A stretch of 48,074 nt of DNA. Source: Anaerolineae bacterium. GTDB lineage: Bacteria; Chloroflexota; Anaerolineae; S140-20. The stretch is taken from positions 1 to 48,074 of the forward strand of contig JALUTT010000055.1 of the NCBI GenBank assembly GCA_027021705.1. Direction: 5' to 3'. Under the pieces are notes generated by a model. That model was given only the letters and a program-made list of their open reading frames with translations, had not been told where the DNA came from and searched no databases. Below are positions 26,261 through 30,358 of the stretch, one piece after another. The number at the start of each line of letters is the position of its first letter. The stretch's first letter is position 1. Position numbers and translations under genes: made by a program.

Positions 26261-26460
26261 AGGCTGCTCTCCTGTCGGAGAGTATACTCGCTTTTGGATT
26301 TTGGGTCAAGGGCCGGTGAGGCGCTGAGGTAAGGAGAAGAAAAAGCGGTGATTACCCATATCTTTGGAGATAGGGAGACCGGCCGTCCACGAATGGGGCA
26401 CGAATACACGAATTAAAGACCGCACCCCGGAATGGCTCAGACCCCCGCAGGTGTATGAAT

Positions 26461-26750
26461 TGGACTTTGGACAAAACGTCCCCTATCCTCGACGTGGATC
26501 GAGGGTCAATCTAGCACCTTAACATCCGAGCAATCGAGCCAATGGAGAGAATCAAGCCCTCGACCGGGCTTTTCTGACCACCGGGTGGCGCTGACGCCGG
26601 GGTAAGCGTGTCCCTTTTGTCCGTCCAGGGGATTTACCCCGCGGTTTGGCAGCCCGAGCCGGGGTGCCCAACTGGCGGATAATTCGCGCGAAGTCGCGCT
26701 GCACCAGGGTGGGCGAGAGGGGGCGCTCTTTCCAACGCGGGAGATACCGC
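26461..26750 (-). pseudogene. transposase C-terminal remnant (IS4/IS701-like DDE) with probable terminal repeat
   Basis: RYLPRW..SPTLVQRDFARIIRQLGTPARAAKPRGKSPGRTKG..RHPVVRK resembles such transposase C-termini; TGGACTTTGGACAA at 26461 is a candidate IS end; N-terminus absent. Confidence 0.6.
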
Positions 26751-26921
26751 GCACGGTCTGACATCGGGCGAGTACCGACCGGAGGTGTGGGCGCTCCTGA
26801 AGGGTGGCAAGGAGGTGCGTCGCGGGCGGGGGGATGAAGTGCTCCCCTGCACCGACTACATTTGCTTTCTTGGCTGACCGTTTTGCCTGCAATGCATTTC
26901 AAATTTTTAAGGTTCTCCCTC

Positions 26922-26949
26922 TTGACTTGGAGGCCAAAATCCATATAAT
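26922..26949 (+). promoter_or_regulatory. strong sigma70-type promoter of the putative ncRNA
   Basis: TTGACT-16 nt-TATAAT with AT-rich upstream sequence in an otherwise very GC-rich genome. Confidence 0.75.
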
Positions 26950-26955
26950 GGAAAT

Positions 26956-27240
26956 TGAAGCCCCGAGAAACTGGACGATACAGTAGGGGAAGGTAACCGA
27001 AAATAACCTGAAGTTGGTAAGCGGTGGAAACCTGATCCTTCGGGAGGGGGTGGAAGCCGTAAGCCAGGGGAAAGGTGGCAACATCGGGAGACTGGCAAGC
27101 GGAAGGTTGAATCCGCAAGGAATCAACCAACCGGGAACCAACGTAGGGGGTCTTCCTCAGAAACGAGGAAGTAAGTAGGTTATCGGAAACTACTGGGTGA
27201 TCGGAAGGTTACTTGGGGCTTCACCTTTGCGACAGGGTGA
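26956..27240 (+). ncRNA. putative large structured non-coding RNA, family not recognised
   Basis: Closing helix TGAAGCCCCGAG / CTTGGGGCTTCA, at least 8 nested helices, UUCG and GCAA tetraloops; own promoter and terminator; no credible ORF. Confidence 0.75.
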
Positions 27241-27280
27241 CCGCCGGTTCCTCCCACGGGGACCGGCGGTTTTCGTCTTT
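27240..27280 (+). terminator. intrinsic terminator (+ strand)
   Basis: ACCGCCGGTTCC / GGGACCGGCGGT stem followed by TTTCGTCTTT; no U-tract on the minus strand. Confidence 0.75.
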
Positions 27281-27332
27281 GGGGTATCTGCTCGCTCAGG
27301 ACCCGGAGGGGTTCGGGGGTGGGGTAGGGGGG

Positions 27333-27914
27333 TCAGGGCAGGTAGACCTCCGGGCGCAGGACGCCGATGTAGGGCAAGTGGCGGTAGTGCTCCCGGTAGT
27401 CCAACCCGTATCCGACGACGAAGTAGTCCGGTATCTGGAAGCCTCGGTAGACGATGGGGAGGTCTACCAGCCGGCGGCGGGGACGGTCCAGGAGGGTGCA
27501 GATGACCACGCTGGCCGGATTGCGTTGGCGCAGCCAGCGCAGCAGGTAGTGCAGGGTGAGCCCCGTGTCTATGATGTCCTCGACGAGGATGATGGAGCGC
27601 CCTTCCGCTGGCTCCTCCAGGTCCTTGAGGATCTGCACGTTGCCACAACGGCCCCGGTGAGCCCCGTAGGGGCAGATGGCCAGGAAGTCTATGGTAAAGG
27701 GGATGGTGATCGTCCGGCAGAGGTCGGCCAGGAAGGGCACAACGCCCTTCAGGACGCCGACGAGCAGAGGGTCTTGGTCGGCATAGTCCTGGGAGATTTG
27801 GGCTCCCAGTTGGCGGACGCGGCCGGCGATCTCATCAGGGGCCAGCAAGATGTGGGCGATGTCCGGGTGACGTTCAACGGTCGGATTGCTGATCGTCGGA
27901 GCGGTCGGATTCAT
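27333..27914 (-). CDS. hpt: hypoxanthine phosphoribosyltransferase-like protein
   Basis: VGVLKG, ILVEDIIDTGLTL PRPP loop, FVVGYGLDY..YRHLPYI. Confidence 0.88.
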   Translation of the reverse strand: MNPTAPTISNPTVERHPDIAHILLAPDEIAGRVRQLGAQISQDYADQDPLLVGVLKGVVPFLADLCRTITIPFTIDFLAICPYGAHRGRCGNVQILKDLEEPAEGRSIILVEDIIDTGLTLHYLLRWLRQRNPASVVICTLLDRPRRRLVDLPIVYRGFQIPDYFVVGYGLDYREHYRHLPYIGVLRPEVYLP

Positions 27915-28293
27915 GCTGGAGGGCCTTCTGGCCGATCAGCTCATCGTGGCGCTCGATCATGCCCCAGCGGGCTAAGAGGGTGCGGAAGTCCCGTCGGGTG
28001 AAGAGTTTGATGTTGATGTGGGGATACCGGGCGCGTAGCCGTCGGATCTTGCGGTTCTTCTTGGTAATGAGTTCCTGGCGCATTGTGGTGACTTCGACGT
28101 AGAGGTCTTGTTCGGGCAGGTAGAAATCGGGGGTGAAGGCTTCGATGACCTGTCCCTCTTCGTCCTCCTGCAGGACGAAGGTGTGGGGCTCGTACTCCCA
28201 GGGAATCTCGTAGTAGTCCAGGAGGCGGGCGAACTCTGCCTCGCTGGGGTGGCTGAAGTGGGGTTGGGATCGGCTTTTTTGGTCGGCGTCCAT
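27874..28293 (-). CDS. small PD-(D/E)XK nuclease-like protein (T7 endonuclease I-like)
   Basis: SEAEFARLLDYYEIPWEYEP...FTPDFYLPEQDLYVEVTT; overlaps the hpt start. Confidence 0.6.
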   Translation of the reverse strand: MDADQKSRSQPHFSHPSEAEFARLLDYYEIPWEYEPHTFVLQEDEEGQVIEAFTPDFYLPEQDLYVEVTTMRQELITKKNRKIRRLRARYPHINIKLFTRRDFRTLLARWGMIERHDELIGQKALQHESDRSDDQQSDR

Positions 28294-28294
28294 G

Positions 28295-28804
28295 TCAGCG
28301 GATGTGGAACTTGAGCACGAGCCGGCCCAACTGGATCTCGTCCCCATCGCGCAGCCCCTGGGGGACATAGGGAGGGAGCCGGCGCTTGTTGATGTAGGTG
28401 CCGTTGGTGCTCAGCAGGTCTTCGATGTAGAAGCCGGTCTTCTGGCGATGGATGCGGCAGTGGTAGCGGGAGACACCGCCCTTGAAGGCCCCGTAACGGG
28501 TCAGGTCCACCATGTGGATGGACTGGTCGGGGGGATGGCCTCGACCCAGGTTGACGGTGTTCACTTTGGGGAGGACGATTTCCTGGCCATCCTCGGTGAC
28601 GAGGACTAGGGTAGCATCTAGGGGAGAACCGGGTGGTCGCTCCGGCTCTCGGGTCTCCCAGGGACTCCGGGTTTCGGTGGGGAGCTCTTGCTCTGGGACT
28701 TCATCGGTGGTGAGTCGTCGGCCGCTCTGGAGATGCACGCCGCACTTGGCGCAGAAGATGGTGCCGGGAGGATTTTCATGTCCGCATGCTGGGCACTTGG
28801 TCAT
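28295..28804 (-). CDS. zinc-ribbon plus FHA domain protein
   Basis: CPACG..FCAKCG; LGR, GVSRYH, EDLLSTNGTYIN, LRDGDEIQLG FHA motifs. Confidence 0.9.
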   Translation of the reverse strand: MTKCPACGHENPPGTIFCAKCGVHLQSGRRLTTDEVPEQELPTETRSPWETREPERPPGSPLDATLVLVTEDGQEIVLPKVNTVNLGRGHPPDQSIHMVDLTRYGAFKGGVSRYHCRIHRQKTGFYIEDLLSTNGTYINKRRLPPYVPQGLRDGDEIQLGRLVLKFHIR

Positions 28805-29072: not shown

Positions 29073-29900
29073 TCACCACGCTGCGTCGGGAAACGTACAC
29101 ACCCCCGCATGACGGCCCACCCGCTTGTACATCTGCACCCCCGTGTACGGCTCCCCCAGAATGCCATCGTGGATCGCCCAACTCCGCCCCCGCACCGTCC
29201 TCTCCATCCCCCGACGCCGGAAGGGGGTCGAACCGTCCAGCCGCCGATAGAGCAGCCTCCCCGGCGCAAACTCCGCGTGAATCCACTCCATCTTGCGCCG
29301 GCCCCGCAGATAGTTGAAGCCGTATCGCTCCAGGAGGATCGCATTGTGGTAGGCCAGAGGCTCGGCGAAGAAGATGTCATGTCCCAAACGCCAGACAAAG
29401 CGCTCAAAGAGCGGGATCAGCTTCTTCGTCAAGCGAAGGCCCCGCCGCACCTGGCCCGGCGCCAGCCCAGCCTCCATCGCCGCGATTTCCGCCGGGATGT
29501 TGCGGCTCAGCGTGCCGAACTTGGTCCGCTCCCCCCGCCAGTCCCGATCCACGTCGAACCGGGGCGAGGTAGGGTCGTTGACGATGAAAAGCAAGACCTC
29601 TAGCTGGTTGTTCGGCGTGTCCGCCAGGTGCAGGTAGAGCAGGGGGTCAACAGTTCCCGGCTCCGGCAGGACCTCCACCTCCACCGACCCGGTCCCCGGC
29701 GTCGCCTTGAACGACACAAGCCGATTCCCATGGCGATCCGTCAACGTCCGAGGGTCTATGTGAAACCGCTCCAGCAGCTCCGTGGGAATCAGCTCCCGAT
29801 AGATCGCCTCCTTCTCGCTGTCCGGGAGGCTGTTGATCTCGTGAATGGAGGAAAGGGCCACACCGTCCACAACAAAGGGAGGCGGAGCGCCGGCTACCAT
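29073..29900 (-). CDS. hypothetical protein (possible AcuA/GNAT-like fold)
   Basis: Long ORF coupled to smpB; GLAPGQVRRGLR, EPLAYHNAILLERYGF, LDGSTPFR, RSWAIHDGIL; function uncertain. Confidence 0.7.
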   Translation of the reverse strand: MVAGAPPPFVVDGVALSSIHEINSLPDSEKEAIYRELIPTELLERFHIDPRTLTDRHGNRLVSFKATPGTGSVEVEVLPEPGTVDPLLYLHLADTPNNQLEVLLFIVNDPTSPRFDVDRDWRGERTKFGTLSRNIPAEIAAMEAGLAPGQVRRGLRLTKKLIPLFERFVWRLGHDIFFAEPLAYHNAILLERYGFNYLRGRRKMEWIHAEFAPGRLLYRRLDGSTPFRRRGMERTVRGRSWAIHDGILGEPYTGVQMYKRVGRHAGVCTFPDAAW

Positions 29901-30358
29901 GACCGCTCCTTCAACGCCCGCTCGATCTGCCGCCGAGTCTCCCGCTCCGCAATAGCCCGCCGCTTGTCATACTTCCGCTTCCCCCGCACTAGGGCGATCT
30001 CCACCTTGGCCAGCCCCCGCTTCAGGTACATGCGCAAGGGGACGATGGTATAGCCCCGCTCCTGCACCCGCCCCAACAGCCGGTTGATCTCCCGCCGATG
30101 GAGCAGGAGCTTGCGGGGCCGACGGGGATCGTGCTGACCATGCCGCCCCGCCGGCTCATAAGGCGCAATATGCACGTTGACCAGCCATAGCTCCCCATCC
30201 CGAGGTTGGACATACCCCTCCCGCAAGCTGACCCGCCCCATCCGCACCGACTTGATCTCCGACCCCTTCAGGGCGATGCCGGCCTCGTAGGTATCCTCGA
30301 TGTGGTAGTCGTGATACGCCTTGCGGTTGGTCGCCACAACCTTGACCGGCTCCCCCAT
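29894..30358 (-). CDS. smpB: SsrA-binding protein
   Basis: NRKAYHDY, EAGIALKGSEIKS, RKLLLHRREI, GKRKYDKR. Confidence 0.97.
   Translation of the reverse strand: MGEPVKVVATNRKAYHDYHIEDTYEAGIALKGSEIKSVRMGRVSLREGYVQPRDGELWLVNVHIAPYEPAGRHGQHDPRRPRKLLLHRREINRLLGRVQERGYTIVPLRMYLKRGLAKVEIALVRGKRKYDKRRAIAERETRRQIERALKERSW

Follow-up and report, generated by a model that had tools for sequence, protein, structure and literature searches.

A modular structured RNA family of Chloroflexota, recurrent beside genes for a nuclease-like protein and an Hpt paralogue

Positions 1 to 48,074 of an Anaerolineae contig from the phylum Chloroflexota (JALUTT010000055.1, assembly GCA_027021705.1; hereafter the window) carry a stand-alone gene for a large structured RNA, which represents a new RNA family not yet seen in any catalogue. 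The family is modular: a near-invariant terminal platform, formed by the two ends of the molecule, surrounds a variable interior. Members recur convergently to an operon that encodes a small conserved protein, here called X, and a paralogue of the hypoxanthine-guanine phosphoribosyltransferase Hpt. We favor the reading that the RNA is a trans-acting protein-binding RNA tied to this X–Hpt module, and we place its probability at roughly 0.45, somewhat short of even odds. The evidence for the gene, its fold, and its family is laid out first, followed by the genomic association on which proposals about its role depend.

A structured RNA gene absent from Rfam

The structured RNA core spans 268 nt (26956-27223, + strand) and is bounded by the outermost bases of the closing helix P1, as the fold and covariation across 32 sequences delimit it. 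A sigma-70-type promoter, TTGACT-16-TATAAT (26922-26949, + strand), predicts a start at about 26955-26957. It scores 11 of 12 and is the sole promoter-like site within 26300-27900, a region whose shuffled versions yield a mean of 0.5 such sites; a −10 box about 7-10 nt 5′ of P1 recurs in the stand-alone homologues and in the first units of arrays. An intrinsic terminator (27239-27281, + strand), composed of a 14-bp stem (27239-27271) and a T-run, follows the core, and within the window the next gene 3′ of it is the convergent hpt paralogue, with no + strand gene downstream. A first-pass annotation of the window, made from the letters alone, had called this promoter, a terminator with a + strand U-tract, and an undescribed stand-alone structured noncoding RNA gene; the promoter and terminator analyses, the fold statistics, and the Rfam search bear out all three.

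The 320-nt segment 26956-27275 (+ strand) has a minimum free energy (MFE) of −144.2 kcal/mol, compared with −105.7 ± 5.2 kcal/mol in dinucleotide shuffles (z −7.39; 0 of 100 shuffles equally good), whereas the minus strand of the same region reaches z −3.88 only. Both the MFE structure and the structure supported by covariation are multi-branched, with a four-way junction. The 12-bp closing helix P1, TGAAGCCCCGAG / CTTGGGGCTTCA, is present in the MFE structure. The 5′ half of the terminal platform (26956-26975, + strand) comprises the P1 strand TGAAGCCCCGAG, an unpaired A, helix P2 (AACT), and a G/A loop (GGA); the 3′ half (27203-27223, + strand) comprises GGAAGGTTA and CTTGGGGCTTCA and is the most conserved stretch family-wide. 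Between them lies an inner domain (27003-27151, + strand), in which two helices lead into the four-way junction and its three hairpins (loops TTCG, GCAA, and GCAA), and in which the majority of the core family's invariant nucleotides sit. On its 3′ side stands a further hairpin, CTTCCTC-AGAAAC-GAGGAAG (27152-27171, + strand), with 7 of 7 pairs changed on both sides and 70% paired in the MAFFT alignment described below.

Most of the pairings proposed in the first-pass annotation recur in the MFE structure: P1, CGAT/ATCG, CAGTAG/CTACTG, GTTGGT/ACCAAC, and all four inner hairpins. Two long-range pairings were replaced. ATAACCT (27003) had been placed opposite AGGTTAT (27177); the MFE structure and covariation instead pair AGGTTAT(C) at 27177 with GGTAACC at 26992-26998, a helix in which 6 of 7 pairs are changed on both sides. 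Likewise, CGGT (27022) had been set against ACCG (27130); GCGG at 27021 instead closes its own hairpin with CCGT at 27056. The partner of CCG at 27131 is CGG at 27099, and every pair of the helix that they form is changed on both sides.

Across the whole 48-kb window, a search against Rfam (Rfam 15) returned 0 matches at the gathering score, and a permissive scan of 26800-27400 returned only three matches, all at E 1.8-6 and to unrelated small-RNA models. Ten diverse relatives searched against Rfam gave no family match apart from an unrelated molybdenum-cofactor (Moco) riboswitch elsewhere in locus L297. A family member of about 160 nt precedes this Moco/tungsten riboswitch (RF01055, 69.7 bits, L297:1670-1784, on contig C54 of genome G568) by about 150 nt.

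The RNA is not 6S RNA, RNase P RNA, signal recognition particle (SRP) RNA, or transfer-messenger RNA (tmRNA). Genes for all four were located on other contigs of the same genome (G000) and none in the window: 6S (RF00013) at G000:C108:38164-38342 with 84 bits, RNase P RNA (RF00010) on C76, SRP RNA (RF00169/RF01854) on C59, and tmRNA (RF00023) on C90. Identity with 6S RNA was rejected on three counts—the window has no RF00013 match, the genuine 6S gene is on C108, and the fold is multi-branched rather than a rod. A full-text literature search, with supplementary motif lists outside its scope, found no description of the family; the term-matched passages of bioRxiv 10.64898/2026.10.21.760802, PMC5737381, and PMC2864571, likewise apart from supplementary motif lists, do not mention the RNA. 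In the text that the search covered, no structured RNA was connected with nucleotide salvage.

Homologues, covariation, and modular architecture

The RNA is single-copy in its own genome. BLAST against 60 relatives recovered three copies in genome G015, each with its own TTGAC-N17-TAnnnT promoter and the same fold, and the first four sequences already showed compensatory change in 26 of 68 pairs. A covariance model of the inner domain (R1; 164 positions, built from 4 sequences) was then run over 151 genomes of the class and matched in 13 genomes at E ≤ 0.01. Matches at loci L081, L082, L083, and L088 (E 5e-5 to 2e-4 on the loci) were dropped as coding-like sequence with no P1, leaving ten genomes: G000, G015, G030, G041, G061, G074, G088, G106, G114, and G147. 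R1 is of limited reach, and every prevalence figure given here is a lower bound.

Pattern searches extended the census. An exact-pattern scan of one genome per species (185,579 species) returned 26 stretches, 25 of them from metagenome-assembled genomes (MAGs) labeled Anaerolineae, Anaerolineales, Chloroflexota, or Chloroflexi; the remaining one, labeled "Paludibacteraceae," had no R1 match. R1 was run on 21 of these stretches and matched 20, the other five being duplicates of known loci. A strict version of the 3′ motif brought in members from other classes of the phylum, for at least two classes in all, with matches at L276, L287, and L291 judged to be chance. A loose pattern, CCTGAAGNTGGNNAGCGG with 1 mismatch over 401 genomes, was discarded because coding-sequence matches dominate. 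Among viral contigs, a 15-mer motif had 38 exact matches, and 0 of the 38 reached into the family profile.

The fold is supported across homologues, a check that the first-pass annotation had named for itself. We aligned 32 full-length units with MAFFT and mapped the MFE structure of the window onto them, leaving out a contig-truncated sequence (L100), a near-duplicate pair (L078), a sequence with a degenerate 3′ part (L116), a double-domain form (L079), and a distant one (L080). In this alignment, 79.5% of cells are paired versus 66.2% after shuffling, and 66 of 82 pairs show change on both sides. Covariation scores 0.399, compared with 0.201 ± 0.007 in shuffled alignments, 0 of 500 shuffles being that high—a comparison in which the structure, taken from one aligned sequence, is somewhat favored, while the alignment itself was fitted to no structure. 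Slid controls, in which partners were moved by 1-3 columns, scored 0.08-0.15. P1 and P2 together (16 pairs) are 94.7% paired, with 11 pairs changed on both sides.

The platform consists of P1 (CCNRAG / CUYGGG), a 1x1 A/A mismatch, a 4-bp P2 (AAYY / GGUU) that contains G-U pairs, and a purine internal loop with G opposite A. Its 5′ end reads CC(Y)(R)AG, then N-A-A/G-Y-Y, and then a G/A-rich stretch; its 3′ end reads a G/A-rich stretch running into GGUUA and then CUYGGG. It is common to all 51 tabulated members (118-422 nt), bar a few with variant motifs. The interior that it encloses varies in length between about 60 and about 360 nt and lacks homology across the family as a whole. The core family, to which the RNA of the window belongs, has a conserved four-way junction as its interior, with invariant nucleotides (RNA numbering) at G33, A46, U60, G61, G66-G68, C103-U105, A107, G108, A116-A118, G120, G133, A134, C141, A190, G220, A232, and A233.

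Every stand-alone member carries a −10 box a few bases 5′ of P1, some clades place a small 5′ hairpin ahead of P1, and most stand-alone members, as well as the last units of arrays, have a T-run within a few bases of the P1 3′ strand. Copies may be dispersed, each with its own promoter (three in G015, two in G061), or set head to tail in arrays of four units (G147) or two (G030, G074, G114, and L102), with units of about 260 nt joined by A-rich linkers of 5-8 nt. With a promoter only at the first unit and a T-run only at the last, each array forms one transcription unit.

A search beside homologues of X uncovered a wider family of 187-422 nt that R1 barely sees. At the upper end, L133, L138, and L146 (in G066, G106, and G020, all of one genome family) are 393-422 nt long and hold two modules resembling the inner domain within one P1; these forms are an internal duplication, not a tandem array. 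Below that range, among the members from other classes that the strict 3′ motif brought in, stand mini forms of 118-130 nt in G471, G495, and G527, and G568 carries two copies of about 160 nt.

Association with the X–hpt operon and candidate roles

The family is associated with X and hpt both by position and by co-occurrence. At 23 of the 29 best X loci of the class sample, hpt lies directly downstream of X, and at 13 of those 23 a family member is convergent just past hpt. The same arrangement is found in the window, in G030, G074, G114, and G130, at the MAG loci L102, L107, and L109, and in the three genomes with mini forms, which belong to another class; G106, which also shows it, is counted among the 13. 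Convergent synteny thus extends to at least 24 genomes from several families and a second class, and in several loci the RNA lies 22 to about 70 nt from the hpt stop codon. Of the 151 genomes of the class sample, 51 have X, and a family member was identified in 25, of which 23 bear X: the RNA was thus seen in 23 of 51 X-bearing genomes versus 2 of 100 genomes lacking X. These synteny and co-occurrence figures are lower bounds because 29 of 50 other X loci were inspected. The strict 3′ motif matched in 16 genomes, all X-bearing, with 2 of the 16 matches attributable to chance and a reversed control pattern giving 6 matches.

The genes around the RNA in the window all lie on the minus strand: membrane proteins with DUF4013 and DUF2085 upstream, then hpt, X, and an FHA gene on the other side, followed by smpB and ctpA. 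The smpB gene, which encodes the partner of tmRNA, is at 29894-30358 (− strand), 2.7 kb from the RNA, and the tmRNA gene itself is on C90. The hpt paralogue (27333-27914, − strand), convergent with the RNA, matches TIGR01203 with 183 bits (cut-off 150). It is one of three such genes in G000, and the most divergent: the other two, in tandem on C92 (G000:C92:76228-77436), score 225 and 212 bits.

Directly upstream of hpt, and overlapping it, is the gene for X (27874-28368, − strand; 164 aa, core of about 125 aa). X has no family match in Pfam or NCBIfam, is 50-65% identical across families of the class, and is single-copy. Its profile matches phage T7 endonuclease I (E 1e-4), and the top structural matches of its AlphaFold (AF2) model (mean predicted local distance difference test, pLDDT, 83.5) are all PD-(D/E)xK-fold proteins: Bax1, I-Bth0305I, Vsr, VRR-NUC, TnsA, RAP/FASTK, and tRNA-splicing endonuclease. 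The scores are middling but consistent (VIA Z 5-8.2; Foldseek E 6e-3 or worse). On the profile match and this modeled structure, X is assigned to the PD-(D/E)xK nuclease-like superfamily, with a predicted restriction-endonuclease-like alpha-beta-beta-beta-alpha-beta core. Three acidic residues (E8, D46, and E57) do not vary; the residue aligned to the lysine of the T7 endonuclease I motif "VETKG" is a threonine ("VELTT"), and K69 and K72 in the next helix are invariant, as is a basic helix, KNRKxRR. Relatives by fold include the RNA-handling RAP/FASTK and tRNA-splicing endonuclease domains.

Homologues of the X domain comprise 4,468 short and 1,055 longer proteins, and most of the 120 listed among the longer matches are fusions. 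In other phyla, the domain is fused N-terminally to Hpt or C-terminally to cytidylate-kinase-like proteins; cytidylate-kinase-like (PF13189) fusions occur in Acidobacteriota, Desulfobacterota, and others, and Hpt fusions in Dehalococcoidia. In one source, X homologues are often mislabeled "hypoxanthine phosphoribosyltransferase." For X and Hpt, PADLOC gave no more than marginal matches (X at E 0.0018 or worse).

On the favored reading, the RNA would act in trans within a ribonucleoprotein (RNP), its terminal platform would serve as the docking site for a protein, and its function would be tied to the convergent operon of X and the Hpt paralogue. That a platform is common to members of 118-422 nt is what one would expect of a binding site, not of a ligand pocket, and a copy number that varies is in keeping with stoichiometric action of the RNA. 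The most plausible partner is X, given its nucleic-acid-enzyme fold, its RNA-handling relatives, and its conserved basic helix; the RNA might then be a regulator, decoy, or scaffold for X. That X is the direct partner is itself only a tentative proposal, one that we would sooner expect to be wrong than right. Of the "sponge or scaffold" role suggested in the first-pass annotation, the scaffold or protein-binding part stays our best guess, and the sponge part is not supported, with no CsrA found in the 94.9%-complete genome and a weak enrichment of GGA.

A more ambitious version is comparably tentative. The RNA could be the dedicated subunit or regulator in a module of three parts—a structured RNA, X with its PD-(D/E)xK fold, and the Hpt paralogue. 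In it, the platform would dock X, and an interchangeable interior, from about 60 nt up to two junction domains or four-unit arrays, would adjust or direct an activity joining the RNA to purine-nucleotide salvage. If so, the activity could be, for example, RNA-gated nucleic-acid cleavage or RNA-controlled base salvage, and the module would represent a novel type of bacterial RNP, its RNA built on a modular "platform plus payload" design analogous but unrelated to Y RNAs. Should the RNA–X link prove functional, it would connect a structured RNA to nucleotide salvage.

Several observations weigh against tying the RNA to X and Hpt. Synteny and co-occurrence among related genomes are non-independent observations. 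G041 (96% complete) has the RNA and lacks X at E ≤ 1e-5, and G147 carries an array with no X at E ≤ 1e-5, its contig ending directly after the array. Dispersed copies in G015, G061, and G088, and copies in a low-GC clade, lie away from X–hpt; two of these, G015b and G061a, precede a glmU-like gene on the same strand. In 80 metagenome loci of cytidylate-kinase-like–X fusions from other phyla, nhmmer found 0 matches at E ≤ 1 and a pattern search found 1 chance match, which implies that the X domain works without the RNA elsewhere. Finally, the strictly convergent orientation would also suit a cis or antisense mechanism.

Two further settings were recorded alongside these. In the low-GC Anaerolineae MAGs at L101, L105, L098, L121, and L122, the RNA lies about 100 nt downstream, on the same strand, of a gene for an NYN (PIN-like RNase) protein of 639-670 aa, one of which (639 aa) also has an OST-HTH/LOTUS domain. 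At L135 (G039:C171), a tandem array of GC-rich, GGATGTGAGGTGGGCTTTAGCCCGCCATGT-like repeats of about 30 nt occupies the place of the RNA past hpt, and the family member of G039 is on another contig.

The main rival to a trans-acting role builds on that orientation and is, in our judgment, unlikely: a ligand-responsive terminator gating antisense transcription into X–hpt. Here the RNA would be a riboswitch-like sensor; when P1 is unformed, transcription would read through into the convergent operon and lower its expression by antisense or interference, with a purine- or phosphoribosyl pyrophosphate (PRPP)-related ligand. The always-convergent position close to the hpt stop codon suits this scheme, as do the T-run a few bases past the P1 3′ strand in most stand-alone members and last array units and the invariant junction nucleotides of the core family, which resemble an aptamer core; riboswitch-controlled antisense RNAs are also known, as in S-box/ubiG of Clostridium acetobutylicum and B12/AspocR of Listeria. 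Conservation family-wide, however, resides in the platform, and an interior of about 60-360 nt that is non-homologous is unlike a ligand pocket. Many copies do not face hpt, the window has a separate strong terminator after the RNA, and arrays of up to four units are unusual for aptamers. A conventional cis-regulatory riboswitch would occupy a 5′ leader, and no + strand gene follows the RNA in the window.

Improbable, too, is a large catalytic or self-assembling RNA without need of a dedicated protein, comparable to ribozymes or to ROOL, GOLLD, and OLE. The highly ordered fold with its GNRA and UUCG loops, the invariant junction nucleotides, and the tight packing of tandem units on 5-8-nt A-rich linkers would all accord with it; against these stand the absence of a match to any Rfam ribozyme or large-RNA model and a variable interior, which argues against a single catalytic core.

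Tandem arrays and co-occurrence with the PD-(D/E)xK nuclease-like X could also bring to mind a type III-like RNA antitoxin or inhibitor, an abundant and sometimes tandem RNA that neutralizes nuclease activity of X. We give this little credence. X is single-copy, 50-65% identical across families, and joined to metabolic enzymes in other phyla, a profile that differs from that of a sporadic toxin; a threonine occupies the position of the canonical catalytic lysine, recognized by comparison with the catalytic residues of T7 endonuclease I; and the PADLOC matches for X are marginal. The RNA, for its part, is convergent to X rather than upstream on the same strand, and its units of about 260 nt are not short repeats.

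That the RNA is part of a mobile element or a remnant of one—an omega RNA, a bridge RNA, a retron noncoding RNA, or a group II intron fragment—is very improbable. Repeats do lie just upstream of the RNA, and the first-pass annotation had raised the possibility of domestication from a mobile element; yet the RNA is single-copy in G000, hpt-side synteny is kept across families and classes, no transposase, reverse transcriptase, IscB, or TnpB is adjacent (28 loci, flanking open reading frames against Pfam), and none of the viral-contig motif matches extends into a true family match. The transposase remnant that had been reported upstream was not recovered either: no open reading frame in 26261-26950 matches Pfam at E ≤ 0.1, although repeats are present there. 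One is a 293-nt segment (26458-26750) with an opposite-strand counterpart of 98% identity at G000:C126:2244-2536; this segment may be what had been taken for the remnant. Another is an element of about 80 nt (26342-26424) with at least 40 copies at 91-98% identity in the genome and the look of a miniature inverted-repeat transposable element or a repetitive extragenic palindromic element.

Least credible of all is a sponge for CsrA/RsmA through single-stranded GGA: the first-pass count of about 13 GGA triplets is accurate (13, of which 8 are fully unpaired in the MFE structure), but base composition alone predicts 9.6, a weak enrichment; CsrA (PF02599) was not found in G000 (94.9% complete) under a search that matched control genomes; the hairpin loops are TTCG, GCAA, GCAA, and AGAAAC, with no repeated GGA hairpin loops; and the conserved nucleotides sit in the helices and junctions of a fixed fold.

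Comparison with known systems

In bacteria, large RNAs whose complex fold is conserved are rare, and past finds—riboswitches, 6S, OLE, ROOL/GOLLD, and raiA/ModT—opened new biology. The present family has strong covariation support and occurs in two or more classes of a phylum from which few members have been cultured, and its modular design is unusual, running from mini forms of about 120 nt to double-domain forms of about 420 nt and to co-transcribed arrays. Newly recognized here are the platform and variable-interior architecture, the arrays, the mini and double-domain forms, the members in other classes, X with its predicted fold and its fusions, and the co-occurrence of X and the RNA; the genetic link between the two gives each a testable partner.

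For every known family considered, the membership tests that were run came out negative; the systems below are comparisons rather than assignments. omega RNA/HEARO, bridge RNA, and retron msr-msd differ by their company: the neighbors in the window are DUF2085, hpt, X, and FHA genes, and no IscB/TnpB, IS110 recombinase, or reverse transcriptase was found across the 28 loci. Type III toxin–antitoxin systems pair RNA repeats with an endoribonuclease toxin, the repeats lying upstream of the toxin gene, being co-transcribed with it, and being processed by it. Their RNA, ToxI, resembles the present RNA in having tandem structured units near a nuclease-like gene; the present units are about 260 rather than about 36 nt and are convergent to the gene, and X is conserved, single-copy, and fused to metabolic enzymes elsewhere. 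The S-box/ubiG and B12/AspocR antisense RNAs share the arrangement of a structured RNA convergent to an operon that it possibly controls, whereas the present RNA has no known aptamer fold, has a variable interior, and has many copies that face no conserved gene.

6S RNA (RF00013) offers a likeness in general type: both are stand-alone noncoding RNAs of the abundant kind, with a closing helix formed from both ends. 6S RNA is a long, largely double-stranded rod with a central bubble resembling an open promoter; the present RNA is multi-branched and without an RF00013 match, and its genome has a 6S gene of its own on C108.

Y RNAs, represented in bacteria by YrlA with its partner Rsr/Ro60, provide the nearest analogy in design. 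Their hallmark is a terminal stem with a modular interior, and they often occur in several copies, sometimes adjacent, beside the gene for the partner protein. In the present family, too, a terminal stem made from the 5′ and 3′ ends is conserved and the interior is variable, a likeness in design only. The RNA is much larger than Y RNAs, no tRNA-like module was recognized in it, and its neighbors are X and hpt rather than rsr. Membership was rejected, as TROVE/Ro60 (PF05731) was not found in G000 (94.9% complete), where the same search matched control genomes, and the window has no match to Rfam Y_RNA or YrlA.

The orphan large RNAs raiA/ModT, OLE, ROOL, GOLLD, and HEARO share with the present RNA a complex conserved fold, GNRA loops, and a promoter and terminator of their own. 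It is set apart from them by the lack of an Rfam match, by its occurrence in Chloroflexota, by its conserved platform with a variable interior, and by other neighbors. Overall, the RNA resembles Y RNAs in design and orphan large RNAs such as raiA, OLE, and ROOL in status.

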